Assembly: GCA_963775225.1 (NCBI GenBank)
Contig: CAVZHW010000002.1
Location: 211,909 to 275,908 of the forward strand
Length of the DNA: 64,000 nucleotides
Direction of reading: 5' to 3'
From: an uncultured Chloroflexia bacterium
GTDB lineage: Bacteria > Chloroflexota > Limnocylindria > Limnocylindrales > CSP1-4
Part shown: positions 17,235 to 32,600 of the stretch, one piece after another
Numbering within the stretch: position 1 is the stretch's first letter
Layout: each line of letters opens with the position of its first letter
Notes under the pieces: model-generated
Databases searched by the model: none
Seen by the model: the letters and a program-made list of their open reading frames with translations, nothing else
What the model was told of the DNA's origin: nothing
Program-made: the position numbers and the translations under genes

Positions 17235-17525
17235 TTGACGTCGAACGTCGCCCAGAGCTACCCGTACACGACCGAGACGGACAGCGAACGGGCCGCGGCC
17301 GTCGCTGCCGCAGTTGAGCGCTTTCCCGATCTCGCCGACAAGATCGCCAGCGAGTCGCAGCCGCTCGAGTTCGACCAGCCCGCGGAGCCGGGCCGGCCGC
17401 ACCGGACGTGGGTGTTCGTCTGCCCCAGCCACGTCAGCGGCCGGCTGCACGTGTGCGGCTATGCGCTGGAGCGCCACGCGCTCTACACGGTCTGCGACGA
17501 AGGCGGCGAGACCTACCTGCGTTGA
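17235..17525 (+). CDS. Small hypothetical Cys/His-containing protein (96 aa)
   Basis: TTG start behind GAGGGAG. Third-position GC is high throughout. The C-terminal part is VCPSHVSGRLHVCGYALERHALYTVCDEGG. Its stop codon overlaps the TTG start of the next gene (TTGA). Confidence 0.5.
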   Translation: MTSNVAQSYPYTTETDSERAAAVAAAVERFPDLADKIASESQPLEFDQPAEPGRPHRTWVFVCPSHVSGRLHVCGYALERHALYTVCDEGGETYLR

Positions 17526-18688
17526 GCGATCCGGCCGACACCCTGATCCGCTGCAACCAGTGCGGCAACTCCGTGCCGCGCATGGCCTACTGCGTCCGCT
17601 GCGGCGATCCGCTCAGCGACGAATACGACGAGGAGGCGCGCGAGCGCCAGCGCGGCCGGTTCGCGGCAGCCCCTGACGAGCCACTCAACTCCATCTCGGT
17701 GATCAGCACCATCTTCCCGCAGCTGCCCTATGCGCACATGCGCACATTCCGGCTGGCGCTCCTGCTCGGAACGGCGCTGGTCATTCTGCTGGCGCTGGTT
17801 GGCGCCTTCGCCGTGGGTCTCGTGGCGGCGGCCGTGCTCGTGCCACTGCTGATGGTGCTCTACCTGTACGTCGTCGACATATACGAGGACGAGCCGCTGT
17901 CGGTCGTTGCCGCGACCATGATCTGGGGCGCCGCGGCCGGCGCAGTCTTTGCCTTCGCGACCAACGCGGTGCAGACGTCCAGCCCGTTCGCCGGCGGCAA
18001 TGCGAGCCAGCTGCTGGTCCACGGCATCGCCTTGCCCGTGGTCGCGGCGGCACTGATGTTCGTCGGTCCGCTCGCCCTGCTGCCCGCGCGGCGCTTCAAC
18101 GACGTGCTCGACGGCGCGACCTTCGGCGCGGCGTCGGGCGCATCGTTCGTGGGCGCCCAGATGATCGTCAACGCTCTGCCGCTCCTCTCCGGCGGCCTGC
18201 TGCCGGGCGGCGACACGCTGTCGTGGAGCGTGCAACTGGTGTCGCTCGGGATCCTGCAACCGGTCATCGCCGCCGGCTCGATCGGGGCCGCCACGGCCGC
18301 CATCTGGCTGCGCTACCGGGCACCCGTGCGTGATCGCCAGGCACTCGGCCCGCTGGGCGTGCCGGTCATCGCCGTCGCGGCGGCGGTTCTGCTGCTCGTG
18401 GCTGCCGGACTCGCGCGCACCGGCCTGTCGCTCATCCCCGAGTCGATCGCGCTGCTGGCCATCGCCGCGCTCGCCCTGCTCTGGCTGCGGCGCGCCCTGC
18501 ACCTGGGCCTGGTCGAGGAGCTGCACGAGCTGCACGATGCGCCCGACGTGCGCTGTCCCAACTGCGGCCGGCAGACACCCGGTATCGGGTTCTGCGGCAA
18601 CTGCGGCATCTCCCTCACCGCCGTACCGCGCGCGCGGCGCGGCCGGCCAGGGCCGGTCGCGGGCGCCGGCGAGGCCACCGACCAATGA
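17522..18688 (+). CDS. Polytopic membrane protein, PrsW-protease-like, flanked by N- and C-terminal zinc-ribbon motifs
   Basis: This is the ORF 17408..18688, trimmed to TTG at 17522, which overlaps the upstream stop. N-terminal zinc ribbon: CNQCGNSVPRMAYCVRCG. C-terminal zinc ribbon: CPNCGRQTPGIGFCGNCG. There are about 7 TM segments. The block YVVDIYEDEPLSVV..WG resembles the D.yE.EP signature of the PrsW family. The family call is tentative. Confidence 0.55.
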   Translation: MSDPADTLIRCNQCGNSVPRMAYCVRCGDPLSDEYDEEARERQRGRFAAAPDEPLNSISVISTIFPQLPYAHMRTFRLALLLGTALVILLALVGAFAVGLVAAAVLVPLLMVLYLYVVDIYEDEPLSVVAATMIWGAAAGAVFAFATNAVQTSSPFAGGNASQLLVHGIALPVVAAALMFVGPLALLPARRFNDVLDGATFGAASGASFVGAQMIVNALPLLSGGLLPGGDTLSWSVQLVSLGILQPVIAAGSIGAATAAIWLRYRAPVRDRQALGPLGVPVIAVAAAVLLLVAAGLARTGLSLIPESIALLAIAALALLWLRRALHLGLVEELHELHDAPDVRCPNCGRQTPGIGFCGNCGISLTAVPRARRGRPGPVAGAGEATDQ

Positions 18689-19512
18689 GCGGCTGGCAGC
18701 CATCGACGCCGCCGCCGGGTCCCTCCCTCAACCGGCCGCCGGCCCCGGCGAAGATGAGCCCGGTCGCGATCCTGGCCGTGTTCCTGGCCACCATGCTGGT
18801 GCTGTCGCTCGGCGCCGCGGTGGTCGTCTTTGCGCTCTCGCCGGGGCCCCAGCCGGCACCCTGTGCAGCGAACCAGGTGTGCGCACCACCACCGCCCGGC
18901 CAGCCGCGCGCGAGCACGCCGCCCGGAGCATCACCCGGGCCCACCAATCAACCGATTCCATCGGGCTCGCCCGGCACGGGACGCTTCGAACCGGCCGACG
19001 AGCCGCCGAGCACCGCCGCGCCGCTCGTCAACGGGGAGATCTGGAACAGCGGCAGCCTCGGTTATTCGTTCGAGTGGGACCCCGATCTGTGGTCGCTCAG
19101 CTTCCAGGACGACCAAACGGCGGTACTCGACAACTCGATCGGCGAGCTCGTCGTGGTGGGCGCCTCGTCCGACACGTCGGTCGACCAGCTGATCCAGCAG
19201 CAGCTCTCGATCGTCGACGGCTTCACTGTGGGCCGGGCGCTCGACAGCTCCGACGTCGACGCCGTCCTGGGCGCCCACGTCGGCTACATCGACGCCCACG
19301 CACAGGTCTACTCGGCCACGCTGCTCGACAACAGCGGCACGCCCAGCGCGCCGGCGAACGTGACCGTGGTCGGCGCGAGTAACGGCCGGATGAGCGCGGC
19401 GATAATCGTGATCGCCGCCAACCCCGACGACGACTCGCACGGCCAGCCGAACCTGACCATCGTGCGCCAGTCGGCCGACCAGATCCTCAAGACCTTCAAC
19501 TGGGGCGGCTGA
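18685..19512 (+). CDS. Membrane-anchored hypothetical protein with a Pro-rich stalk
   Basis: The start overlaps the upstream stop (ATGA). There is a single TM (VAILAVFLATMLVLSLGAAVVVFAL), followed by a P-rich segment and a globular part of about 170 aa with no motif I recognise. Confidence 0.55.
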   Translation: MSGWQPSTPPPGPSLNRPPAPAKMSPVAILAVFLATMLVLSLGAAVVVFALSPGPQPAPCAANQVCAPPPPGQPRASTPPGASPGPTNQPIPSGSPGTGRFEPADEPPSTAAPLVNGEIWNSGSLGYSFEWDPDLWSLSFQDDQTAVLDNSIGELVVVGASSDTSVDQLIQQQLSIVDGFTVGRALDSSDVDAVLGAHVGYIDAHAQVYSATLLDNSGTPSAPANVTVVGASNGRMSAAIIVIAANPDDDSHGQPNLTIVRQSADQILKTFNWGG

Positions 19513-19514
19513 CA

Positions 19515-21254
19515 GTGTCTGAGAAGCGCCGCGGCCGCATTCCGGTCACCAGCCTGGCGCTGGTGCTGCTCGCGGCGGTCGCCTGCTCCGGAGGGCCGTC
19601 GAGCCCAGCAGGGCGGCCGAGCGTCGCGACGCCCAACCAGGGCGCCTCCGCGTTCGGCGCCGCGCCGGCCACCGACGTCGCGTTGGGGCCGACGGCAGCC
19701 GACGCGTCAGTTTCCATCGCGGTCAGCCTGCGCCTGCCGGGCGAGGCGGCACTGGCCGACTACCTGGCCGGCCTGTCGAACCCGGCCTCGTCCGAATACG
19801 GCCACTACCTGACCGCCGCGGAGTTCGGCGCTCGTTTCGGCCTGCCGCTCTCGGAGATCGACCGTGTCGTCGCCTGGCTGCGCGACGGCGGGCTGGCCGT
19901 GACTCGGCTGCCGCAGCGCACGTCGCTGTCCGTTACGGGCACCGCCGGACAGGTCGAGCGGCTGCTCGGGATCGGCCTGATGGATCGTCAGACGGCCGAT
20001 GGCCAGCGCTATCACCTGCCCACCGGCTCAGCGCAGATACCGGCTGAGCTGGCCGCCGACGTGGCCAGCATCGTGGGCCTCGACAACGAGCCGGCGCTGC
20101 GCTCAGGTTTCGACAGCGTGAGCGGCCGTGACGTGCCCAACGGTGCGCTGGGGCCGGCCGACGTCGCGCGCGCCTACGGCATCGACCAGTTGTGGGCCGC
20201 CGGGCTGCACGGCGAGGGAGTGTCGGTTGGGCTCGTCGCGCTCGACACCTTCACCCAGAGCGACGTCGACAAGTTCGACCGGCGTAACGGCATCAGCGGG
20301 CCACCGATTGACGTCGTGCGCATGCCCGACGCCCTCGCCTCACCGGGCGACGAAGCCGGCGAGGTGGCCCTCGACGTGCAGGTGCTGCGCGGCATCGCGC
20401 CGAACGCGCAGATCGTGGCCTACGAGGGCAGCACCGACTTCGGATCGATGGGCCCGCTCATCGCGCGCATCGTCGCCGACGGGCGCGTCAAGATCGTCAG
20501 CATCAGCTTCGGTCTGTGCGAGAAGTACTACCCGAACGACGTGCGCCGGGCGGACGAGCAGGAACTGGCCGCCGCGTACGCCGCGGGTATCAGCGTCTTC
20601 GTCGCGAGCGGTGATTACGGCGCATATGACTGCCGCAACCTGCAGCTGCGCAGCGGGCCGCAGGACCGCGACCTGACGGCCTCGACCGACTGGCCGTCAT
20701 CCAGTTCCCACGCGATCTCGGTGGGCGGCACGTACCTGACCGTGCGCCAGGACGGCACGTACCTCGACGAGGCAGCGTGGGCCGATCCATTGAGCGGTGG
20801 CTCCACGGGTGGTGGCCTGTCGCTGGCCGTGCCCCGGCCGGATTGGCAGGCTGGTCCAGGCGTCGACAACAGCGACAGCAACGGCATGCGCCAGGTGCCC
20901 GACGTCGCCGGACCGGCCGACCCGTCGAGCGGCTTCGACATCCAGTACACCGAGGCAAGCGGCGACTTCGTCGATGCGCTGGTCGGCGGCACCAGCGCCG
21001 CCACGCCCTTCTTCGCGGCCACCATGGTGCTCACCGAGCAACTCGCCGAGCGCGAGGGCGTCGCCTTCGATCAGCCACTCGGCCCGTTGCTCTACCAGGT
21101 CGCTGCGCAACAGGGCGCCAATGCGTTCCACGACATCGTGCGCGGCAGCAACCTGCTCCAGGCCGCCGGCCCCGGTTGGGACTATGCCACCGGCCTCGGC
21201 TCACCGCGTGCCCCCCAGCTCGCGCGGGCAATCGTCGATTTACTGACGCGTTGA
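19515..21254 (+). CDS. Sedolisin/kumamolisin-like serine peptidase (S53) lipoprotein
   Basis: GTG start. Lipobox-like LLAAVAC|SG. The pro-kumamolisin activation region (YLTAAEFGARFG) is followed by the S53 catalytic Ser block, VGGTSAATPFFAA. Confidence 0.75.
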   Translation: MSEKRRGRIPVTSLALVLLAAVACSGGPSSPAGRPSVATPNQGASAFGAAPATDVALGPTAADASVSIAVSLRLPGEAALADYLAGLSNPASSEYGHYLTAAEFGARFGLPLSEIDRVVAWLRDGGLAVTRLPQRTSLSVTGTAGQVERLLGIGLMDRQTADGQRYHLPTGSAQIPAELAADVASIVGLDNEPALRSGFDSVSGRDVPNGALGPADVARAYGIDQLWAAGLHGEGVSVGLVALDTFTQSDVDKFDRRNGISGPPIDVVRMPDALASPGDEAGEVALDVQVLRGIAPNAQIVAYEGSTDFGSMGPLIARIVADGRVKIVSISFGLCEKYYPNDVRRADEQELAAAYAAGISVFVASGDYGAYDCRNLQLRSGPQDRDLTASTDWPSSSSHAISVGGTYLTVRQDGTYLDEAAWADPLSGGSTGGGLSLAVPRPDWQAGPGVDNSDSNGMRQVPDVAGPADPSSGFDIQYTEASGDFVDALVGGTSAATPFFAATMVLTEQLAEREGVAFDQPLGPLLYQVAAQQGANAFHDIVRGSNLLQAAGPGWDYATGLGSPRAPQLARAIVDLLTR

Positions 21255-22445
21255 CGCCTCCCGGCTGAGGGTCAGCAACAGCGCCGCGAGCAGGGTGGTG
21301 CGCGGCACGATCGAGTCGATCTCGACGTATTCGGCCGGCGAGTGGGGATTACCGCCCACCGGCCCGAGGCCGTCGAGCGTGGGCACGCCCAAGCCGGCCG
21401 TGGTGTTCGCGTCCGACGCGCCGCCGGTCGCGGCATCTTTCAGGGCGAAGCCCAGGCGCGCGGCAAGGGCCACCGCCTGATCCACCAGCGCACCGGCGGC
21501 GGCGGTCTTCTCCATCGGCCAGAAATGCCCGCGCAGCTCAACCGACGTCACGACGTCGGGCACGGTCGAGCGCTCGGCGATCGCGCGTATCTCCGCCTCG
21601 GCCCGCTCCAGCGCCGCCCGGTTGGTGGCACGCAGGTCGATCTCCAGTTCGGCGTGCTCGGCGATGACGTTGGCCCGCGTCCCGCCGTGCACGGCGCCCA
21701 CGTTCACCGTCACGCCCGGCCAGCGGCCATTGAGCGCGGTCAGCGCCAGGATCTTGTGCGCCGCCTCGACCACCGCGCTGCGGCCCTTCTCCGGCTCGAC
21801 CCCGGCGTGCGCGGCGCGCCCCGCGATGCGCAGCCTGATGTCGACGACACCCTTGCGCGCGCTGACGATGTCGCCGTTCGCGCGGCCCTCCTCGAGCACC
21901 AGCGCGAAGTCGATCGACTGCTCGCGAACCACACGCTCGATGACCGGGGTGCTGGCCGGCGAGCCGATCTCCTCGTCGGGATTGACGACGTACACCAGCC
22001 GGCCGAAAGGCAGCTGGTCGGGAGCACCGACCGTTGACTCCAGCGCGCGCAACGCATACAGCCCCGCCAGCAGACCCGACTTCATATCCGCCGCGCCCGG
22101 GCCGTAGGCCCTCCCGCCGCGCACGCTGAACGGGCGCGCGGCGACCGTTCCGGGTTCGAAGACGGTGTCGAGGTGGCCGATCAACAAGATGTTCGGCCCG
22201 CCCCGCCCGGGGAGCTCGCCCACCAGCGTGTCGCCCAGGCTCGCGTTGGGCTCGACTCGCACACTCGCGCCGAGCGCGCGCAGCTGCTCGGCAACCCAGC
22301 GCCCGACCTCATCCACGCCGGCCTTGGTGTACGTGCCGCAGTCGATGTTCACCAACCGCTCGAGATCGGCCAGGTAGCCGGGCAGCATGCCTTCGATCGA
22401 CTGACGCAGGCGCCCCAGCTCGGCGTCGGTGACTTTTTCGTGCAA
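21240..22445 (-). CDS. M20-family metallopeptidase (carboxypeptidase G2 / ArgE-DapE-like)
   Basis: This is the ORF 21240..22940, trimmed because its 5' part overlaps the real membrane-protein gene at 22502..22933 in another frame. The proposed start is TTG at 22445 (LHEKVTDAELGRL...), with an alternative ATG at 22550. Motifs seen: LLIGHLDTVF, GPGAADMKSG, NPDEEIGSP. Confidence 0.75.
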   Translation of the reverse strand: MHEKVTDAELGRLRQSIEGMLPGYLADLERLVNIDCGTYTKAGVDEVGRWVAEQLRALGASVRVEPNASLGDTLVGELPGRGGPNILLIGHLDTVFEPGTVAARPFSVRGGRAYGPGAADMKSGLLAGLYALRALESTVGAPDQLPFGRLVYVVNPDEEIGSPASTPVIERVVREQSIDFALVLEEGRANGDIVSARKGVVDIRLRIAGRAAHAGVEPEKGRSAVVEAAHKILALTALNGRWPGVTVNVGAVHGGTRANVIAEHAELEIDLRATNRAALERAEAEIRAIAERSTVPDVVTSVELRGHFWPMEKTAAAGALVDQAVALAARLGFALKDAATGGASDANTTAGLGVPTLDGLGPVGGNPHSPAEYVEIDSIVPRTTLLAALLLTLSREASTRQ

Positions 22446-22501
22446 CGGGTTAGCCGCGTGAGTAGGGTCGGTGGGCGGGATGGATCGCGTGGGCCGCGAG
22501 C

Positions 22502-22933
22502 CTACCGCTCCTCGAAGGCCAGGCCGCTCGTCAAGAGCGAGACCAGGCATGCTGCATAGGAGAGCGCGGTCACCAGGTAGGGTGTGGCGACGCGCCACGC
22601 ATCTTCCGAGTGGGTGAACTGGTCGAACCAGATGCTTCCCGACAAGGCAGTCGCCAGCAACGAAATTACGATCCCAAGCACACCCGCCAAGGGATGGTGC
22701 GACCAGATGCCGCGGGCGGCCACGAAATGGAGAACCGCGATCACGACCAGCACCGCCGCGACCGCGGCGAAGAACAGCGCGACCGGTGGCGTGTTGACCT
22801 GCGTCCCATAGATCAGGATCGCCGCGGCGACGACGAAGGCGAGACCGGTGAGTCCGAGCACAAGTGCCGCGATCACCAGCCGTGCTGGTCGGCGGTTGAG
22901 GAGTCGAGAGTCCGAAGCCACGACGCTCTGCAT
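22502..22933 (-). CDS. Small integral membrane protein (4 predicted TM)
   Basis: There are four hydrophobic stretches of about 20 aa (LVIAALVLGLTGLAFVVAAAILI, ALFFAAVAAVLVVIAVLHFV, LAGVLGIVISLLATAL, YLVTALSYAACLVSLL). Codon bias is good. No recognisable family. Confidence 0.6.
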   Translation of the reverse strand: MQSVVASDSRLLNRRPARLVIAALVLGLTGLAFVVAAAILIYGTQVNTPPVALFFAAVAAVLVVIAVLHFVAARGIWSHHPLAGVLGIVISLLATALSGSIWFDQFTHSEDAWRVATPYLVTALSYAACLVSLLTSGLAFEER

Positions 22934-23047
22934 AGCGCACCTCCCTCAGAGCTCGCTTTCAAGCATCGTCCTGCCGCTGCCGGAGCGCAAGACAGGACGA
23001 TCTCTGAACACCGAGTCGCCTTCCGGCGGCCATATACTCCGGCGACG

Positions 23048-24742
23048 GTGCGGCTGGTCGAAATTCGCCTGCTCGATGGGCCGAACCTCTATCGGCTCGA
23101 ACCGGCGGTGCGGATCGAGCTTGCGCTGGGCCGGCGGCGCTCCTGGTACGGGCAGCGGCTGCCCGAGCGTCACTCGGTCGTTCACCTGAGTGCCACGGTA
23201 CCGCGCGCCGATGTGCCGCCGCCGCTGCTCGAACTGGCGCGCCAGATCCGCCTGCTGCACCGGCGCGCGCTGTCACGCGCGGTCAGCGTGACCTTCTACC
23301 GCACCAGCGAACCCGGCCACTGGGTCGTCGCCTATCCATGGCAGGCCGACGATGAAGCCGAGATGGTCGCGCGCACGGCGCTGCGGCTCATCAACGAGCC
23401 GCTTCCCGACAGCGCCGGCGAGCGCCTGTTGCGGCGCATCCGCGAGGCCGGCGGGCGGGCACCGGCCTGGATCACCGACGCGCAGCGGACCATGCCGCTC
23501 ATCAGCATCAGCGGCACCAACGGCAAGTCGACGACGACGCGCATGATCAGCCACATCGCGCGCCTGGCCGGGCGGTCGGTTGGGACGACCACGACTGACG
23601 GCGTGCTGGTCGACGAAGAGCTGGTGGAAGCGGGCGACTACACCGGGCCGCAGGGCGCGCAGCGGGTCTTGGGCCGGCCGGGAGTCGAACTGGCCGTCCT
23701 CGAAACGGCACGCGGCGGCATCCTGCTGCGCGGCCTTGGCTACCAGTCGAACGACGTCAGCGTGCTGACCAACATCAGCGCCGACCACCTCGACCTGCAG
23801 GGCGTCCACACCCTGCCCGAGCTGACCGAGGTCAAGTCGATCATCTGCCGCGTCACGCGGCCGACAGGCGCGGTGGTGCTGAACGCCGACGATCCGCTCG
23901 TCGCGGCACTTGCGCGGCGACTGCGGCCGCAGATCTTCTTCTTCAGCCTGTCGGGCAAGGGGTCAAGACTACGGCGCCACCTCGCGCGCGGCGGGCGCGC
24001 CTACGTGTTCGAGGACGGCTGGCTGGTCGAACGCGAGGGAAAGCGCGCCGAGCGAATCGTTGCCGCGACCGACGTTCCGGCCACGCTCGGCGGGCTGGCG
24101 CGCCACAACGTGGCCAACGCCCTGGCCGCGGCGGCCGGGGTACGCGCGCTGGGCTTGACCGTTCCCCAGGTGGCGCGCGGACTGCGCGACTTTGGCCTCG
24201 ACGCGCGGCTGATGCCCGGCCGGCTCAACGTCTATCGGCGCGGCCGGCGCCTGGTGATCGTCGATTTCGCACACAACGAGGCCGGCCTGGCCGCGCTGAT
24301 CGAAACCGCCGAGGGGCTGGCCGGCGGCCGCCGAGGTCACCGCCGGACAACCATCAGCGTGATCATCGGCACGGCCGGCGATCGGCCCGAGGATTCACTG
24401 CGCGCCATCGGGCGCATCGCCGGCGAGCGCGCCGACGAGGTGGCCATCAAGGAGTCACTGGGCTACCTGCGCGGGCGGACCCGGGCCAGCATCGTGGGCG
24501 AGCTGCTGGCGGGACTCACCCAGGGCGGCGTCGCGGCGCGCGACGTGCCGGTCTACGGCGACGAGCTGGCCGCGATCACCGGCGAGCTGACGGAGCCGGC
24601 GCGACTGGCGGCAGGCCGCGGTGAGCAGCCACACATCGTGCTGCTGATGTGTCACTCGCACCGCGACGAGGTCGAGCAATTCCTCGCCGACGAGGGCTAT
24701 GCCACGGTTGACAGCAGCGCCGCGCTGTCCGGCTTCGGCTGA
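23048..24742 (+). CDS. Cyanophycin-synthetase-like protein with an N-domain-like region and a Mur-ligase (M) domain only; the ATP-grasp domain is absent
   Basis: This is the ORF 22610..24742, trimmed to GTG at 23048. The trimmed protein starts MRLVEIRLLDGPNLYRLEPAV, compared with LRILETRVMRGPNIWARAPAI in the neighbouring cphA. The Mur-ligase P-loop ISISGTNGKSTTT lies at about residue 155, versus about residue 513 in cphA. Blocks shared with the cphA M domain: TTTDG, LETARGGILLRGLGY, DVSVLTNISADHL, VLNADDPLVA, NVANALAAAA, DFAHNEAG, GTAGDRPED. Confidence 0.75.
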   Translation: MRLVEIRLLDGPNLYRLEPAVRIELALGRRRSWYGQRLPERHSVVHLSATVPRADVPPPLLELARQIRLLHRRALSRAVSVTFYRTSEPGHWVVAYPWQADDEAEMVARTALRLINEPLPDSAGERLLRRIREAGGRAPAWITDAQRTMPLISISGTNGKSTTTRMISHIARLAGRSVGTTTTDGVLVDEELVEAGDYTGPQGAQRVLGRPGVELAVLETARGGILLRGLGYQSNDVSVLTNISADHLDLQGVHTLPELTEVKSIICRVTRPTGAVVLNADDPLVAALARRLRPQIFFFSLSGKGSRLRRHLARGGRAYVFEDGWLVEREGKRAERIVAATDVPATLGGLARHNVANALAAAAGVRALGLTVPQVARGLRDFGLDARLMPGRLNVYRRGRRLVIVDFAHNEAGLAALIETAEGLAGGRRGHRRTTISVIIGTAGDRPEDSLRAIGRIAGERADEVAIKESLGYLRGRTRASIVGELLAGLTQGGVAARDVPVYGDELAAITGELTEPARLAAGRGEQPHIVLLMCHSHRDEVEQFLADEGYATVDSSAALSGFG

Positions 24743-24764
24743 TCCCTTCCGCCGAGCGCCGGAG

Positions 24765-27608
24765 TTAGCCCTCCTCGACCTCGAATTCGCCGGGCGCGCC
24801 GATGGCCGTGCCGCCGGAGCGGTTCGCCCCACCGGCTGCCACCTGGCGATAGACGCCGGTGATGTCGTCGGCACACACCACGACGACGTCGCCCGGCCGT
24901 GCCTGACGCATGCCGGCGGCCACGGCTTGCCCTTCGTCCAGCAGCGTCTCGACGCGCTGCACTCGTCCGCCCGCGCGCCGCGCGCGCTCGATGCCCTCGG
25001 CCAGCAGGACGGCCGATTCACCCTCCTTGCGCCCGCGCAGGTTGGCGTCTTCGCGCAAGACCAGAGCGTCGAAGGCCTGCCCGGCGAGGCGCCCGTACTC
25101 GCGGTGGTCGTCGTCTCGGCGGTCACCCGGCATGCCGATCACGCCGATCGCTCGGCCCGCGCGCGCCGGCTGACGCCCGTCGCCCGAGTCGCCGACGGCC
25201 GGGTCGGCCGAGCCCTCGTTGGTCGGCTCCATGAGCAGCTCGACGAACTCGCCCAGCCGGCGCATGCCGTCGACGTTGTGGCAGTAGTCGAGGATCACCT
25301 TGTAGCCGTTGACCTCGATCTCGTTGAGCCGCCCGGGAGCCTGGAAGAACGACGTGCTGAAGGTGCGCAGAGCCTGGCGAATGTCGTGCAGATGCGCGCC
25401 GGCCGCCCACGCGGCCGCGGCCGCGGCGAGGGCGTTGGCGACGTTCATGCGCGCGCGGCCGCCGAACGTGGCCGGGATGAGGTGCGTGTACTGCAGGTGC
25501 ATCGTCCGGTCGCCCTGGCGCAGCACGATCAGCTCGCCGTCCGGCGTCTGCTGCAGCACCATCGCCGCGCCGCCGCGGCCGCAGTGCCCGTCGACCCGGT
25601 CGTAGCCCTCCTCCCCCTCGTGCTGCTGCATCGAGAAGTAGACGACCCGGCCGCGGCATTGCCGCGTCATGCGCGCGACGAGCGGGTCGTCGGCGTTGAG
25701 CACGGCCATGCCCGCGCGCGGCACCGCCTCGACCAGCACCGACTTGACATGCGCCAGCTGGGCCAGTGTCTCGACGCCGCGCAGGCCCAGATGATCGCCG
25801 GTCACGTTGGTCACCACCGCGACATCGTTGCGGTCGTAGCCCAGGCCCTCGCGCAGGATGCCGCCGCGCGCGACCTCGAAAACGGCGGTGTCGACCGACG
25901 GGTTCTGGAGCACCATCTGCGCCGAGCGCGGGCCGGACATGTCGCCCTTGCGGATCAGCCGGCCGTCGATGACGATGCCGTCGGTCGTGGTCATGCCCAC
26001 GCGGCGGCCCATCAGCTTGAGGATGTGGGCGATCATGCGCACGGTCGTCGTCTTGCCGTTGGTGCCGGTCACGCTGATGATCGGGATGCGCGCGTTCGAC
26101 CCGTCGGGGAAGAGCAGGTCGATGACCGGCTTGGCCACGTACTGTGGCTCACCCGAGGTGGGATGCGTGTGCATCCGGAAGCCGGGTGCCGCATTGACCT
26201 CGACGATGGCGCCGCCCTGTTCGCGGACGGGGACGGCGATGTCGGGCACGATGAAGTCGATGCCGGCCACGTCGAGACCGATCACGAGTGCCGCGGTCTC
26301 GGCGATCTCGACGTTGTCGGGGTGCGCCTCCAGCGTTCGGTCGATGGCCGTGCCGCCGGTCGACATGTTGCCGGTCGCCGCGAGCAGCACGCGTTGCCCC
26401 TTCGCCGGCTTGTCGTCGAGCGACAACCCCTGCCTGGCCAGCAGCTCGTCTGCGGCCGGCGTCACGCGGATGCGCGTCAGCACCCGTTCGTGACCGATGC
26501 CGCGCCGTGGATCGGAGTTCTCCCGGTCGACCAGCTCGCGCACGGTGTGCCGGCCGTCGCCGACCACGCTCGCGGGCATGCGCTGAGCAACCGCCGCCAG
26601 CCGGCCGCCGACCACCAGCACGCGGTAGTCGTTACCGGTGACATACGACTCGACCACCACCTCACCGTGCCGGCTCTCGTCCCACGCCGCCTGGAAGGCA
26701 TTGCGCACGTCGTCGTCGGTGCGCAGGTCGAGGCCGACTCCGCGGCCGTGGTTGCCGTCGAGCGGCTTGACCACGACCGGGTAGCCGATGCGCTGCCCCG
26801 CCTCGACCGCGCCCTTCTCGGACTGCACCACCTGCGAGCGCGGCACGGGCAGCCCGGCCGAGCTGAGCAACTGGTTGGTCAGGCTCTTGTCAGACGCGAG
26901 GTCGACCGCGATCGCCGACGTGCGTGACGTCATCGTCGCCCGGATGCGCTGCTGGTGGATGCCCTGGCCGAGCTGGACGAGGCTCGCCTGGTCGAGCCTG
27001 ATGAACGGGATGTCGCGCGAAACGGCCTCGTCGATGAGCGCCTGGGTGGACGGACCGAAGGCCTTGCGCTCGGCGAGCAGGATGAGATCGGAGAGTTCGC
27101 TGGCGAAATCGAACTCGACCTGGTCGGGCGCAATGAGGTGGTTGAGCAGCTCGACGGCGATGCGCCCCGCCTCGCGACCGACCTCCTCCTCGCGGTACTC
27201 GAAGACCACGTTGTAGCGGCCGGGCTTGCCGGCGCTGCGTGTCTTGCCCAGCCGCGCCTCGGTGCCGGCCAGGCTCTGCAGCTCGAGCGCGACGTGTTCC
27301 GCGACGTGGCCGAGCCACGTTCCGTCACGCAGCCGGGCCAGGAAGCCGCCCCGCCGGCCGAGCGAGCAGGCATGGCCGTCGAGCGTGGGCAGCAGCTCGA
27401 CGAGCGCCTCGTTGAACCCGGGAATCAGGTTGCTCGGCCACTCCTCGAGGGCGCCCAGGTCGACCAGCATCACGATGGCCGGGGCGCGCGCCCAGATGTT
27501 CGGTCCGCGCATGACGCGCGTCTCAAGGATGCGCAGCGTGGGCGCCGGTGCGCGCGACGATCCCGCGCCCGACTTCCCGGCACCCGGCGACCCCACGCCC
27601 GACTTCAC
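24765..27608 (-). CDS. cphA: Cyanophycin synthetase (N, ATP-grasp G and Mur-ligase M domains)
   Basis: This is the ORF 24765..27842, trimmed to GTG at 27608, which is preceded by AAGAGG and a 5-nt spacer. The alternative ATG at 27512 would remove the first conserved strand. ATP-grasp blocks: GYPVVVKPLDGNHGRGV, DYRVLVVGG, IVEVNAAPG. Mur-ligase blocks: ISVTGTNGKTTT, FEVARGGILREGLGY, DYCHNVDG. Confidence 0.9.
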   Translation of the reverse strand: MKSGVGSPGAGKSGAGSSRAPAPTLRILETRVMRGPNIWARAPAIVMLVDLGALEEWPSNLIPGFNEALVELLPTLDGHACSLGRRGGFLARLRDGTWLGHVAEHVALELQSLAGTEARLGKTRSAGKPGRYNVVFEYREEEVGREAGRIAVELLNHLIAPDQVEFDFASELSDLILLAERKAFGPSTQALIDEAVSRDIPFIRLDQASLVQLGQGIHQQRIRATMTSRTSAIAVDLASDKSLTNQLLSSAGLPVPRSQVVQSEKGAVEAGQRIGYPVVVKPLDGNHGRGVGLDLRTDDDVRNAFQAAWDESRHGEVVVESYVTGNDYRVLVVGGRLAAVAQRMPASVVGDGRHTVRELVDRENSDPRRGIGHERVLTRIRVTPAADELLARQGLSLDDKPAKGQRVLLAATGNMSTGGTAIDRTLEAHPDNVEIAETAALVIGLDVAGIDFIVPDIAVPVREQGGAIVEVNAAPGFRMHTHPTSGEPQYVAKPVIDLLFPDGSNARIPIISVTGTNGKTTTVRMIAHILKLMGRRVGMTTTDGIVIDGRLIRKGDMSGPRSAQMVLQNPSVDTAVFEVARGGILREGLGYDRNDVAVVTNVTGDHLGLRGVETLAQLAHVKSVLVEAVPRAGMAVLNADDPLVARMTRQCRGRVVYFSMQQHEGEEGYDRVDGHCGRGGAAMVLQQTPDGELIVLRQGDRTMHLQYTHLIPATFGGRARMNVANALAAAAAAWAAGAHLHDIRQALRTFSTSFFQAPGRLNEIEVNGYKVILDYCHNVDGMRRLGEFVELLMEPTNEGSADPAVGDSGDGRQPARAGRAIGVIGMPGDRRDDDHREYGRLAGQAFDALVLREDANLRGRKEGESAVLLAEGIERARRAGGRVQRVETLLDEGQAVAAGMRQARPGDVVVVCADDITGVYRQVAAGGANRSGGTAIGAPGEFEVEEG

Positions 27609-27691: not shown

Positions 27692-28606
27692 CTAGCTCGA
27701 GGCGAGCGAGTCGTTTTCGAGCGCGCGGAGCACGGGCGTCGCCACTCGCTCGCGACGCTCGAGGTCGAAACGGTAACCGGCCGGCAGCGAGTGCAGCACG
27801 ACGTTGCTGATCATCACCGGCCGGTGCGCCTTGACCTCCCATACGTCGGTCTCCGATTCGGCGCCGTCGAGGATGGTGACGCTGCGTCGGCCGATGACCT
27901 CCATCACGTGATCGGGACCGATGTCACCCGCGGTGTCCTCGTCGAAGCCGAGGCCGAGCAGCGACGGGTTCGAGGCAATGATCGCCAGCAGCCGGCCCAG
28001 CCGGTTACGCTGCTCGAAGTGCTGATCGATGATCAATCCCGGCAACAGGCCCAGACCGGCCGCCATCTGGAACATGCGCTGCTTGGGTGTTTCACCACTT
28101 GCCCCGAATGCGACCATGTGGGTACTCATCGCGGAGGCGCCTGCGCTCGTGCCGGCGATGACGGCGCCTTCGCGGTGACGCCGCGTTATCGCCTTGCCCA
28201 TGGCCGTGCCGCCGATGGTCGAGGACAGGCGCAGTTGGTTGCCGCCGGTCAGGAACACGCCGGTCGCCTCACGCACTGCGCGGACGGCGGCGGGATCGCC
28301 GGCCTCCTCGCGCGTCGTCGCGTGAATCGGCCTGACCTCGGAAACGCCCAGCTCGCCGAATATGCGCCGGTACATCTCGCCCGCCAGCGGCCCGAGCGAC
28401 GACGCGCTGCTGATGACCGCGATGCACGCTCCGGAACCGCCGGCCAGCTTGACGAAGCGCGTGAGGATGGCGCGCTCGCGCACCTTGTCCTCCGCGCCGC
28501 CGATGACGATGACGTGTCCCGCGCTCACCTGCCGGAGTATGGCATGCGCCAGAGTGGCGGCGTGGTGCACGACTGCCGTTCGGGGCTTGCCGCGAGGCTT
28601 TACCAT
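27692..28606 (-). CDS. cphB: Cyanophycinase (S51 peptidase)
   Basis: This is the ORF 27692..28858, trimmed to ATG at 28606. Motifs seen: VIVIGGAEDK, FLTGGNQLRL, the catalytic Ser block IAGTSAGASAM, and IIDQHFEQRNRLGRL. Confidence 0.88.
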   Translation of the reverse strand: MVKPRGKPRTAVVHHAATLAHAILRQVSAGHVIVIGGAEDKVRERAILTRFVKLAGGSGACIAVISSASSLGPLAGEMYRRIFGELGVSEVRPIHATTREEAGDPAAVRAVREATGVFLTGGNQLRLSSTIGGTAMGKAITRRHREGAVIAGTSAGASAMSTHMVAFGASGETPKQRMFQMAAGLGLLPGLIIDQHFEQRNRLGRLLAIIASNPSLLGLGFDEDTAGDIGPDHVMEVIGRRSVTILDGAESETDVWEVKAHRPVMISNVVLHSLPAGYRFDLERRERVATPVLRALENDSLASS

Positions 28607-28683: not shown

Positions 28684-29511
28684 GTGACCGACGCGCTCCG
28701 TTCCAATTCGTCGTCCACCCACTCGCTGCTCGCTCGTGCCGTGCCGGCGCGCCTGCGCGAGCCGCGACGCGTGGCGGCCATTGCCCTGCTCGCGCTGGCC
28801 GGCGGCCTGATCCTGGCTTTCGTCGCGGCGCGTGGGCAGCTGGCCGGCTCGGACGCACTGGCCTACTGGACGGCCGTCCACCGCTGGTGGGTCGCTGCCG
28901 ACATCTACCAGGCGCTGCCCGATCGCTACGTGGCGCCGCCGGGCGTGCTGCCTTACTCGTACGCGCCGTGGACGCTCTACCTGCTGCTGCCGTGGGCGGC
29001 GCTGCCGTGGGACGTGGCCTGGATCGTGTGGCGTGCCGCGATGGTCGTGACCTTCGCGCTTACCGTCGCATGGGCCTATCGCCAACGACCCCTGGGCACC
29101 GCTGCGCTGGTAGCGCTGTTCGGCGCCCCGTTGGCGGCCAATTTCGACACGGGCAACGTCAACCTCTTCATCGGCGTAGGGCTCTGGGCCGCCTACTGGA
29201 CCGGGCCACGCCTTGGCGGACTTGCCTGGGGACTGGCGGCCGCGATCAAGTTCCTGCCCGTACCATTGCTCGCGTTCATGCCCCGCCGCTCGTGGAAGTG
29301 GGGCCTCGCCATATTTGGCGTGTTGATGGTCCTGACCTTGGCGACGTGGCCACAGACCCTGCGCCAGCTGGACATCGACCTCAACTACCCGCGGCCCATC
29401 CGCATCGACTACCTCGTCATCCTGTGGGGCATCGTGCCGTGGTTGTACTCGCGGCCATGGCCGCCGCGCCTATCGTGGTCCTGGCTGCGCGAGGCGCCGC
29501 CGCCGGCATGA
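28684..29511 (+). CDS. Polytopic membrane protein, DUF2029/GT87-like glycosyltransferase candidate
   Basis: There are about 8 TM segments. Motifs LPYSYAPW, DTGNVNL and AAIKFLP resemble the Y.YPP, GQ.N and K..P motifs of polyprenyl-phosphate-dependent GT87 enzymes. It is divergent from cphB with a 77-nt spacer. Confidence 0.45.
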   Translation: MTDALRSNSSSTHSLLARAVPARLREPRRVAAIALLALAGGLILAFVAARGQLAGSDALAYWTAVHRWWVAADIYQALPDRYVAPPGVLPYSYAPWTLYLLLPWAALPWDVAWIVWRAAMVVTFALTVAWAYRQRPLGTAALVALFGAPLAANFDTGNVNLFIGVGLWAAYWTGPRLGGLAWGLAAAIKFLPVPLLAFMPRRSWKWGLAIFGVLMVLTLATWPQTLRQLDIDLNYPRPIRIDYLVILWGIVPWLYSRPWPPRLSWSWLREAPPPA

Positions 29512-29617: not shown

Positions 29618-32600
29618 TCAGGCGCGCAGCAGCCAGCCGCGGTAAGAGCGCTGGAAGCCGGCGGCGGTGAGCGCGGCGACATGCGGCGAGTCGGCAACCG
29701 CGACGCCGTCGACGCGCTCGACCTGGAGAGCGCGGAAGCGGCCGCCGTCGAGCAGCTGGCGCAGGGCGGTGAGCGCGGCCGCGGCAACCGCCGCATCGGC
29801 AAATGCGGGCAGTGTCTGCAGCGATCTGCCGCCACGCTCGAGGTACAGCACGGCCTGCCCGTCGACGATGACCACGTAGGCGCCGGCGGCACGCGCCAGC
29901 GGGCGCCGGTCGTCGTCCGACCAGCGCGGCCAGGGCAGCGCCGCGCCGAAGGCATTGGCCGGGTCGGCGGCGGCGAGGATCAGCGGTTGCCCGGGGGCCC
30001 GATCCCCCGACGGGTCGGTGCGTTCGGAGCGCAGCCGGTCGAGCGCCGCCGGCAGGCAGAACTGGGCGCCGCCGAGGCCCTCGACGAAGTACCCCCGGCG
30101 CACCCGGCCGCGCTCCTCCATGTCGCGCAGGATGGGATAGACGGCGCCGAAGCCGCCGCTCAGGCCTTCCCCGGCGACCGTGTCACGCGTCACCACGCCG
30201 TACGCATCGAGCAGCCGCACCGCCTGCGCGTGGCGGCGTTCGGTCTCGCTGGGCGGCTGCCCGCCGCGCAACGCGATCGCCGTGGCCCGCGCGTCGGTGA
30301 GCAGCGACCAGCGGCCGGCGGCCTCGGGCGGGCCCATCCGCGCGGTCGCCGCGAAGCGCGGCCGCGCGGTCGCCGCGAAGCGCGGCCGCGCACTCGATAC
30401 GGCGCCGCTGCGGCGAGTGCCAGTGCGCGGCCAGCGCAACGCACGCAGCGGGGCGAAGGTGTCGTTGGTGACCTCCGTCGCCCAGACCAGGTCCCACAGC
30501 CCGTCGAGCAGCTCACGCTCACGCACCGGCCGTTCGCCGCGCTCGGCGGCCGCGTGCAGCACCGCCGCCAGCAGGTCACGGTAGAAGGACGCCCCACGCC
30601 GCCCCAGATGCTCGCGGATGGCGTCGTGCAGCCAGGTCGACGGGCGGTCGGGCGCGTCACCATCGGGCGCCGGCAGCAGCAGCGGCAGCCGATCGGGCCG
30701 GTACAACGCGACGCGGCCGTCATCCTGACCGAGCGGGCCCAGGCCGACCCACACCACTTCGCCCGCCGCACCCAGTTCGTCGAGCAGCCGCGGCGTGTAG
30801 CCGGCGACGCGCGCGGGCAGGATGTCGCGCTCGAGCACACTCGCCGGCAGCGGCGTCCCGTCGAGCTGCGCCACCACCTCGGCCAGCCGGTCGATACCGC
30901 CGTGGCGCTCACCGACGCCCTGCCAGCGCGGCAGGAAGCGCGCCAGCGCCTGCGCCTCCACCGGCTCGATCTCACGGCGGAGCGCAGCCAGCGAGCGGCG
31001 GCGCAGCACGCGCAGCACCTCCGGATGGCACCACTCGCGCTCCACCCCGTTGGGCCGGAACTCGCCGCGCAGCAGCAGGCCGTCGGCCAATAGTCGATCG
31101 AGTTGCACCTCAACCTCCGCCACCGGCAGACCCCAGCGCGCGGCCGGTTCGGCCGCCAGGAACGGACCGTGGTGGCGTGCCCAGCGCAGCAGCAGGCCCG
31201 AGAGTGCATCGTGAACCGGCGCCAGGAATGCCTGGGGCACGCCCACCGGCGGCACGACGCCCAGCGCGTCGCGGTAGCGCGCCACGTCCTCGATGGCAAT
31301 CCAGCGTTCCTCGCCCCGGACGCGGACGGCGATCGCGCGCCGGTCGGCGGCGATCGCCTCGAGCCACTCGTCCGCGGCCGAGAGGCGTGCCCGCTCGTCA
31401 GGCCCGCGCACGCGCGCGGCCACCTCGTCACGCGTCAGGTCGCCCAGCCGGCGCAGGAGGTCGTGCACCGCGTCGGCCGAGCCGGCTTGCCGCTCCGGGG
31501 TCAGTGCCTGGAGCTCGAGCTCGAGCTCGGCCAGCGCGCCGGCGTCGAGCAGCTCGCGCAACTCCTCGGCGCCGAGCAGCTCGCGCAGCAGGTCGCGGTC
31601 GAGCGCCAGTGCCTGAGCACGCCGGTCGACGAGTGGCGCGTCGCCCTCGTACATGTACGAGGCGATGTAGTCGAACATCAGTGAGCTGGCGAACGGCGAG
31701 GCGTGGCGCGTCTCGACGCTGACCAGGCGAATCTCGCGCCGCTCGATGGCGGCCAGGATCGACTTGAGCGCGGGGAGGTCGAAGACGTCCTGCAGGCATT
31801 CGCGGTAGGTCTCGAGGATGATCGGGAACGAGGCGTAGCGGCTGGCCACGCCGAGCAGCTGCGCCGAGCGCTGGCGCATCTGCCACAAAGGAGTGCGCTG
31901 GCCGGCGCGGCGGCGCGGCAGCAGCAGCGCACGTGCCGCGTTCTCGCGGAAGTGGCTCGAGAAGAGCGCCGAGCCGCCGAGCACACCGATGACCAACTCC
32001 TCGACGTCGTCGGCCCCGATCCTGATCGCCGCCTCCGCCGCCGCGACGGCGCCATGTCCGCCACCCGGCAGGCCGCCGGAGACGCCGTCGGCCAGGGCAT
32101 CGCCGGCCAGCTCGTCGGCCATCGGCAGGCGGATGACGATGCCGTCGTCCGACCAGATCGGCTGGACCTCCAGCCCGAGCAATTCACGCAGGCGCGCCTC
32201 GATCGCCAGCGCCCAGGGCGCATGCACGCGCGCGCCGAAGGGCGTCAGCATGACTATCCGCCAGTCGCCGAGCTCGTCGCGGAAGCGCTCGACGACCACC
32301 GTCTGGTCGGTGGGCAGCGCGCCTGTCGCCGCCTGCTCCTCGGCCAGGTAGTCGATCAGGTTGCGCGCCGCGAGTGGGTCGAGCAGGTGCTTCTCCTGGA
32401 GTCGTGCCTGTGCTCGTTCGCGGCCGGCCGGGCTTCGTGCCGCCTCTTCGCCGACGCTGCGCGTGAATTCGCCCAGGGCACGCCCGAGCTCGATCGGCCG
32501 TCCCGGTCCCTCCCCCTTCCAGAACGGGATCTTGCCCGGTTCGCCGGGGGCCGGGCTGACCAGCACCCGGTCGCGCGTTATCTCCTCGATGCGCCAGGCG

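Follow-up and report, generated by a model that had tools for sequence, protein, structure and literature searches.

What does a cyanophycin synthetase paralog do when it lacks the domain that extends the polymer backbone and is encoded beside an intact synthetase? This question is raised by a gene, called NM here, in a 64,000-nucleotide (nt) stretch of contig CAVZHW010000002.1 from an uncultured Chloroflexia bacterium (the window). Cyanophycin synthesis is currently explained by CphA1, which has N, ATP-grasp (G) and Mur-ligase (M) domains, and CphA2, which has N, G and a dead M. Our sequence comparisons place NM, with N and M and no G, in an old, conserved and uncharacterized family of CphA paralogs, a third architecture beside these two. 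From sequence, models and analogy together, we see about an even prospect that it is an ATP-dependent ligase of cyanophycin metabolism that forms side-chain (isopeptide) bonds as a stand-alone enzyme. The genes on which the argument turns are:

23048..24742, plus strand: NM, G-less CphA paralog, 564 aa, GTG start (open reading frame (ORF) and translation)
24765..27608, minus strand: cphA1, canonical N/G/M cyanophycin synthetase 1, convergent with NM (TIGR02068 1149.6 bits, cut-off 850; Pfam architecture; 811 bits against SuCphA1)
27692..28606, minus strand: cphB, cyanophycinase (S51) (TIGR02069 257 bits, cut-off 126.6)
21240..22550, minus strand: carboxypeptidase-G2-like M20 metallohydrolase, divergent from NM (Pfam M20 and M20_dimer; start uncertain, ATG at 22550 or TTG at 22445)

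Searches of Pfam and NCBIfam with NM returned Mur_ligase_M (residues 154–363, 78.6 bits against a cut-off of 24) and Mur_ligase_C (residues 391–468, 29.7 bits against 28.4), both over the Pfam gathering scores and thus within the Mur ligase superfamily, and no ATP-grasp family. The cyanophycin synthetase equivalog model TIGR02068 matched with 382.7 bits against a cut-off of 850 (E = 3e-114), and only at model positions 474–835. Residues 119–148 join the N domain straight to the P-loop region, with no G between. The AlphaFold2 model of full-length NM was confident (predicted local distance difference test (pLDDT) 91, predicted TM-score (pTM) 0.91), and Foldseek aligned it with SuCphA1 (7lgj) over 887 columns at a query TM-score (TMq) of 0.80, with G as the only gap; TMq against MurE structures was about 0.55. 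Because the superposition on 7lgj spans both domains with G as a gap, N and M of NM keep the relative arrangement that they have in CphA1. The domains and motifs of NM are as follows:

23048..23491, plus strand: CphA-type N domain and linker, strand-strand-helix-strand-strand-helix over residues 1 to ~118 and a linker helix at 121–134 (AlphaFold2 models, Foldseek, hhalign)
23492..24202, plus strand: M-core (Mur-ligase central ATPase domain), residues 149–385 (Pfam Mur_ligase_M; match to SuCphA1 486–845, E = 4e-103)
23513..23533, plus strand: P-loop GTNGKST, residues 156–162, invariant in 41 orthologs, equivalent to TeCphA1 P-loop 495–501 with K499
23783..23788, plus strand: catalytic pair D246-H247, invariant, equivalent to SuCphA1 D585/H586
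24203..24739, plus strand: M-lid (Mur-ligase C-terminal domain), residues 386–564 (Pfam Mur_ligase_C), with R392, H409, G444-D445-R446-P447 and Y473-L474-R475-G476-R477

NM has the complete M domain that characterizes CphA1, with P-loop, Mg ligands, D-H pair and lid Arg and His, and a CphA-type N domain that hidden Markov models (HMMs) miss and that Foldseek and hhalign detect (probability up to 94%). It nevertheless falls outside the definition of CphA1, because the G domain is missing and the score falls under the equivalog cut-off, and outside that of CphA2, because CphA2 retains an active G and has a truncated, inactive M, whereas the M domain of NM is full length including the lid. Among the other Mur ligases, the best MurC–F model was MurE NF001126 (110.9 bits, cut-off 373; MurE models reached ~1e-32), and MurT (37.8 bits, cut-off 800), FolC (46.9 bits, cut-off 162.65; E = 2.5e-12) and PgsB (22 bits, cut-off 222.7) all stayed under their thresholds.

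These results bear on a sequence-only reading of the window, which had described NM as a CphA paralog made up of an N-like region and an M domain without ATP-grasp; Pfam, the partial TIGR02068 match at 474–835 and the Foldseek gap at G agree. The P-loop that it placed at about residue 155 lies at 156–162, and the M domain that it took to be full length and colinear with that of the neighboring cphA aligned by BLASTP at 42% identity (E = 1e-69, NM 149–535 against CphA1 508–912, colinear). The reading of 24765..27608 as a canonical N/G/M cphA stands on its TIGR02068 score, with the cyanophycinase gene next to it, and the remark that CphA2 is the opposite case, with G kept and M truncated and inactive, matches published work (PMC10273328). 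An unrelated Mur-ligase placement, named there as what would overturn the reading, did not emerge from profile, phylogenetic or fold searches, all of which lead to CphA1 and not to MurE, MurT, FolC or PgsB. Nor had the architecture been recognized as a characterized enzyme class: we found no account of an N+M CphA paralog in the searchable literature, which covers subscription papers in part and may miss a passing mention, and none turned up on keyword search in a RefSeq-wide survey of cyanophycin gene clusters, which was based on complete genomes of mostly cultured bacteria. Unlike those genomes, the lineages bearing NM are known only as metagenome-assembled genomes (MAGs). Public records of NM-type proteins, including those of JGI and UniProt, carry the labels 'cyanophycin synthetase' or 'Mur ligase family protein'; since G-less proteins bear the first label, this is a systematic annotation error that would inflate metagenomic counts of cyanophycin producers.

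The reading frame of NM is intact over 564 codons, with a stop codon that ends at 24742. Although the frame is open further upstream, to 22610 as an in-frame extension, we placed the start at 23048 because more than 100 orthologs (556–606 aa, 57–73% identity, aligned end to end) begin at the same M/V-R-L-V-E-I-R. A promoter and terminator scan of 22400..24900 gave no signal over shuffled background, and tRNA and Rfam scans of the whole window gave no match.

Using a scan that took one genome per GTDB species, we found 379 stretches coding for the NM N region, the best 80 of which were all from Chloroflexota, mostly Limnocylindria MAGs. Further clades with the same architecture came from MAGs of Thermomicrobiales and Actinomycetota, making three lineages with Limnocylindria, and protein lengths ranged from 520 to 610 aa over the three clades. 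NM occurs in hundreds of uncultured soil bacteria, in independent assemblies with the same N-to-M junction and full-length conservation. In a neighbor-joining tree of M domains, in which CphA1 was represented by NM neighbors (Chloroflexota included), two cyanobacterial and two gammaproteobacterial enzymes, the split between NM and CphA1 had full bootstrap support (200/200). Against each CphA1 M domain, that of NM shows ~40% identity, compared with 43–52% among the CphA1 M domains themselves. Because of this split and these identities, NM is an old paralog rather than the result of a recent local deletion, and we rejected a recent loss of G from the neighboring cphA1 on the same grounds (200/200 and ~40% identity to all CphA1). 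The N+M family that we propose is defined by M-domain monophyly apart from CphA1 and by a conserved N-to-M junction, both of which NM displays.

Though weak in sequence, the N-terminal likeness of NM to CphA is real as judged from profile alignments and predicted folds. BLASTP of the NM N-terminus against the neighboring CphA1 gave 31% identity over 39 aa only, PF18921 was not matched by NM in the Pfam search even at E up to 10, and a profile of the first 148 residues found no match among PDB sequences. An N-region profile, run exhaustively against 1.84 billion representatives, returned 213 proteins and no CphA1 N-terminus. The homology therefore rests on hhalign and on fold comparison, since HMM searches detect nothing. 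Aligned with hhalign to a profile of 48 CphA1 N domains, NM N-region profiles matched with a probability of 78–94% (P from 1e-5 to 9e-8) over 112–132 colinear columns, pairing SEPGHWVVAYPW with GKPGRYNVVFEY, the correspondence on which the sequence-only reading had based its CphA-like N-terminus. When the N region was modeled by itself in AlphaFold2 (pLDDT 83) and compared by Foldseek with the whole PDB, the top 12 hits were the N domains of eight CphA1 and four CphA2 chains (TMq 0.47–0.62, probability 0.90–1.0), and at the 13th the probability fell to 0.2. The AlphaFold2 weights used presumably predate the CphA1 structures, which we take to have been released in 2021, so the agreement in fold is unlikely to be recall of a known structure.

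Some matches to the NM N region (P0149, P0164, P0187, P0196, P0214 and P0242) were left out of the representative-protein matches. They are Arg/Pro/Ala-rich wrong-frame or frameshifted translations of the high-GC locus, some of which join antisense M20 sequence to NM, and are gene-calling artifacts in public metagenome protein sets.

Within the N domain, the loop D10-G11-P12-N13-x-Y15-x-L17 is invariant and corresponds by alignment to a hydrophobic SuCphA1 loop with Y14 and I17, which packs against the M domain (PMC9262961). Absent from the N domain in all three NM clades examined is the Cx19HxxEH motif, the zinc site that in CphA1 forms a primer-generating endo-cyanophycinase and is found in 83% of CphA1. 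A second loop, GRRRSWYGQRxP at residues 28–39 (23129..23164), is invariant in Limnocylindria NM, predicted to be disordered (pLDDT <50) and not found in the Thermomicrobiales or Actinomycetota clades; as a lineage-specific, strongly basic and conserved flexible segment, it suggests a binding partner. The N-domain net charge is +10, −10 and +8 by clade, the negative value being that of Thermomicrobiales, and the idea of a basic N-domain surface binding naked polyaspartate (poly-Asp) was dropped because of this change of sign and because the GRRRSWYGQRxP loop is confined to Limnocylindria.

The M domain, in turn, is apparently catalytically competent, as far as residue conservation can tell. Its correspondences with residues of known role in TeCphA1 (PMC9427784) and with the pair whose double alanine mutant inactivates the SuCphA1 M domain (PMC9262961) are:

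TeCphA1 P-loop 495–501 (K499, T500): ATP binding, T500 a Mg ligand; in NM, G156–T162 with K160 and S161
TeCphA1 E558: Mg ligand; in NM, E219
TeCphA1 N497: adenine contact; in NM, N158
TeCphA1 R731, H748: lid contacts to ATP phosphates; in NM, R392, H409
SuCphA1 D585, H586: double alanine mutant kills the M site; in NM, D246, H247

All of these NM residues are invariant in the 41 orthologs and common to every sampled CphA1. The full set that is invariant or shared with all CphA1 comprises GTNGK(S/T)T, E219, D246-H247, K263, R392, H409, D445-R446, R475-G476-R477 and E506, and the ATP-binding and catalytic residues are kept across three clades that are only ~40–45% identical to one another. K263 presumably occupies the position of the carbamylated lysine in MurD/MurE.

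Other positions separate the two families consistently in the alignment:

SuCphA1 position 542: S in CphA1, G203 in NM
SuCphA1 position 566: R in CphA1, L227 in NM
SuCphA1 position 774: P in CphA1, A443 in NM
First lid motif: GDRRDxD in CphA1 (GDRRD core), GDR(P/T/G/Q)x in NM
Second lid motif: [KR]EDx[DN]xRGR in CphA1, Kx[ST]xxY[LF]RGR in NM, with a one-residue insertion

The second lid motif aligns with what we take to be the DNPR motif of E. coli MurE, which reads the incoming amino acid. Because the lid motifs diverge from those of CphA1 and the second has lost its acidic residues, the sequence hints that the amino acid added by NM may not be arginine.

NM keeps company with cyanophycin genes well beyond the window, where its stop codon and that of cphA1 are 22 nt apart. 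Where a Limnocylindria locus extends 4 kb or more downstream, cphA1 lies downstream of NM in 51 of 53 cases, always convergent and at a median gap of 307 nt, and cphB is usually next. All three Thermomicrobiales loci have NM tail-to-tail with cphA1–cphB, with a different upstream gene (a Rce1-like protease). Convergent cphA1–cphB lies 2–4 kb downstream in two of the three Actinomycetota loci with ~10 kb of downstream flank. The co-occurrence with cph genes elsewhere that the sequence-only reading had called for is thus found in three separate lineages. The translation of the neighboring CphA1 contains Cx19HxxEH, and the enzyme is therefore predicted to be primer independent. At its residues ~790–817, at the start of the M-lid, this CphA1 also carries a Gly/Asp/Pro-rich insertion of ~25–30 residues (PTNEGSADPAVGDSGDGRQPARA) that is found neither in solved CphA1 structures nor in Thermomicrobiales CphA1.

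Two findings go beyond that reading: NM is ancient, and its most constant partner, in two phyla, is the M20 gene. The encoded enzyme is predicted to be cytoplasmic, and its nearest solved structure is carboxypeptidase G2 (CPG2; E = 1e-48). A divergent M20 gene lies upstream of NM in 69 of the 70 Limnocylindria loci that extend 1.5 kb or more upstream (median gap 123 nt). In Actinomycetota, an ortholog of the window M20 (51–54% identity) lies ~3 kb upstream of NM in a divergent operon at all four loci, and the three Thermomicrobiales loci examined have no M20 ortholog near NM. CPG2 cleaves N-acyl-linked amino acids with a free alpha-carboxylate, and by our inference this is just the type of bond that holds the Arg side chains in cyanophycin and that occurs in beta-Asp-Arg. 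By analogy, M20 could be a hydrolase of beta-Asp-Arg (the cyanophycin dipeptide) or a side-chain-stripping enzyme. M20 enzymes are not mentioned in the two papers on cyanophycin degradation that were consulted. Many cphA1–cphB clusters are without a known dipeptidase (PMC10206079), and the NM-linked M20 is a candidate for such a 'cryptic' enzyme. The Actinomycetota orthologs are:

L087, 6231–7340: M20 ortholog
L088, 5949–7181: M20 ortholog
L089, 6286–7506: M20 ortholog
L085, 4221–5366: M20 ortholog

Several other genes surround the NM–M20 pair. Between the two in the window, a 143-aa ORF (22502..22933, minus strand) with about four hydrophobic segments and no Pfam match overlaps the longer M20 start; it has no homologs in 88 related loci, where the M20–NM spacing is just ~80–120 nt, and it is either a window-specific insertion or spurious, outside the conserved unit. 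Just upstream of M20, 19515..21254 (plus strand) encodes a sedolisin/kumamolisin-type S53 peptidase (Pro-kuma_activ and Peptidase_S8) with a lipoprotein-like signal, LAAVAC. This gene is syntenic in many Limnocylindria loci, and a distant S53 (28% identity) lies between NM and cphA1 in one Actinomycetota locus (L088 11825–13714), which may be coincidence or may mean that an extracellular protease is linked to the cluster. In Actinomycetota, genes for an XdhC/CoxI-type chaperone, a MobA/MocA-like nucleotidyltransferase and a 230-aa protein with no Pfam match lie between NM and M20 in one divergent operon, which puts molybdenum-cofactor maturation genes beside the pair:

L087, 7436–9959: XdhC, MobA and 230-aa block
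L088, 7178–9922: XdhC, MobA and 230-aa block
L089, 7503–10002: XdhC, MobA and 230-aa block
L085, 5411–7956: XdhC, MobA and 230-aa block

As the proposed side-chain ligase, NM would bind ATP-Mg at its P-loop, and the enzyme would phosphorylate a carboxylate on a peptide lodged in the N domain–M-core cleft. The acceptor that we infer by analogy is an unmodified Asp, through its beta-carboxyl, on poly-Asp or on cyanophycin, whether a whole chain or a fragment. A lid-bound amino acid would then attack the acyl phosphate to give an isopeptide bond. NM would act in trans, like the M site of CphA1, alongside CphA1 and CphB, with the CPG2-like M20 N-acyl-amino-acid hydrolase as a probable hydrolytic counterpart in Limnocylindria and Actinomycetota. 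Lacking G, it has no means of lengthening the Asp backbone. The polymer that serves as M-site substrate in CphA1 sits between the N domain and M-core (PMC9427784), and NM retains exactly the two domains that flank it, which supports an acceptor of the cyanophycin type. Decorating, repairing or re-arginylating a chain and adding another amino acid are all plausible tasks, among which the evidence picks none. A more specific version seems to us quite unlikely: NM and M20 would form a side-chain loading and unloading cycle on a poly-Asp backbone, in which M20 would strip N-acyl-linked side-chain residues, or split beta-Asp-X dipeptides freed by CphB, and NM would re-attach an amino acid, perhaps not arginine, at the cost of ATP.

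Several observations weigh against the proposed ligase. At the Actinomycetota locus L089, cphA is missing from the flanking 10 kb in both directions, L085 has none upstream and none in a downstream flank of just 2 kb, and the Limnocylindria loci L064 and L076 have none within 5–9 kb downstream. Synteny is partly inherited within each lineage, so the locus counts are not independent events. A second arginine-adding site seems redundant because the M domain of the neighboring CphA1 is intact, and given the diverged amino-acid-binding motifs the product might not be arginylated Asp at all. Finally, because the N-domain net charge changes sign among clades, there is no single obvious polymer-binding surface.

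The linkage to M20 invites a different explanation, in which NM and M20 are a ligase and hydrolase pair acting on a non-cyanophycin substrate (a small molecule of the N-acyl-amino-acid type or another peptide) and the cphA1–cphB link is secondary, in parallel with the Mur-type ligase FolC, which adds glutamate, and CPG2, which takes it off. NM–M20 is the tightest linkage (69/70 in Limnocylindria and 4/4 in Actinomycetota, including L085 and L089, without cphA in the flank), the nearest solved relative of M20 is CPG2, and the NM lid motifs are unlike those of CphA1. We consider this explanation unlikely, if worth taking seriously, because the M domain is far nearer to CphA1 (E = 3e-114) than to FolC (2.5e-12) or MurE, the CphA-specific N domain and the N–M arrangement are kept, and Thermomicrobiales NM, with no M20 ortholog nearby, is still tail-to-tail with cphA1–cphB. 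A role in priming is less probable again. NM would here be a de novo primer synthase that links the beta-carboxyl of Asp, free or as Asp-Asp, with Arg, and the resulting beta-Asp-Arg or (beta-Asp-Arg)-Asp would seed CphA1 when there is no cyanophycin for the CphA1 N domain to cleave. However, the CphA1 M site binds longer chains ending in unmodified Asp (PMC9427784), most CphA1-bearing bacteria do without such a gene, and this analysis gave no sign of small acceptors; we hold the idea very doubtful even though (beta-Asp-Arg)-Asp is the minimal CphA1 primer, the N-domain primer route requires pre-existing polymer (PMC9262961), and NM has M-type chemistry, no N-domain peptidase motif and tight linkage to cphA1.

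NM might also be mainly a structural or regulatory subunit that joins CphA1 oligomers through its N domain and tunes polymer length or activity. The CphA1 N domain is described as an oligomerization interface in one study (PMC9427784), and NM retains this domain and is encoded beside cphA1. The invariance of all ATP-binding and catalytic residues across three clades at ~40–45% identity is not what would be expected of a purely structural protein, and CphA2, whose M domain is inactive, has truncated that domain (PMC10273328); we therefore find a subunit role highly improbable. Effectively refuted is the suggestion that NM is what remains of a duplicated cphA in decay, or an artifact of its assembly or annotation. 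It has only the position beside cphA1 in its favor, against the same N-to-M junction and full-length conservation in hundreds of assemblies and 379 GTDB-representative stretches, a clade of its own with 200/200 support and a confident model (pLDDT 91).

Further flanking genes of the window are syntenic in Limnocylindria only, with no link to NM elsewhere:

17408..18688, plus strand: zinc-ribbon multi-pass membrane protein (PrsW-like in an ortholog)
18685..19512, plus strand: 275-aa Pro/Ala-rich protein, no Pfam match
28684..29511, plus strand: GT87 glycosyltransferase
29618..34315, minus strand: Lhr helicase

Should the proposed ligase be borne out, the architecture of N with a live M but without G would give the cyanophycin system, a well-studied and industrially relevant pathway, its first stand-alone side-chain ligase. 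NM would offer a simple means to study M-domain chemistry apart from polymerization and a possible tool for attaching amino acids of choice to poly-Asp or cyanophycin, which is of interest for biopolymer engineering, and it may bear on the priming, completion or remodeling of chains in vivo. If the loading and unloading cycle were true, nitrogen could be taken from a lasting backbone and put back on it, or the product could be a cyanophycin-like polymer of different chemistry; to our knowledge, neither is known for cyanophycin.

Set against known systems, NM with M20 resembles FolC with CPG2, a Mur-superfamily amino-acid ligase plus an M20 hydrolase that cleaves off amino acids in N-acyl linkage whose alpha-carboxylate is free. 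This is an analogy of bond chemistry only: NM is not a FolC (46.9 bits against 162.65), and no pterin substrate is implied. With MurE and the other MurC–F ligases, NM shares Mur_ligase_M and Mur_ligase_C, the P-loop, the DH motif, the putative carbamylated-lysine position (K263) and presumably the acyl-phosphate mechanism. These enzymes, however, have a UDP-MurNAc-binding N-terminal domain where NM has a CphA-type one, the likeness to MurE is far weaker than that to CphA (E = 1e-32 against 1e-114; TMq about 0.55), and NM stands in a cyanophycin gene context rather than in a cell-wall (dcw) cluster. CphA1 (SuCphA1, PDB 7LG5/7LGJ; TeCphA1, 7WAC) is closest, with N and a full M in the same arrangement (TMq 0.80), common M-site catalytic residues and an adjacent gene, and its M site performs the ATP-dependent isopeptide ligation to the Asp beta-carboxyl that is predicted for NM by analogy. 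It differs in having a G domain of ~326 residues for backbone polymerization and the Cx19HxxEH endo-cyanophycinase site in its N domain, both of which NM is without, and in its lid motifs (GDRRD and [KR]EDx[DN]xRGR, as opposed to GDR(P/T/G/Q) and Kx[ST]xxY[LF]RGR), and the two form separate clades. Like NM, CphA2 (PDB 7TA5, 8FXH) is a reduced CphA paralog that has kept N and lost one activity, in genomes that also have CphA1. The two are mirror images: CphA2 keeps G, has a truncated and inactive M and polymerizes beta-Asp-Arg (PMC10273328), whereas NM has a full, apparently active M and no G.

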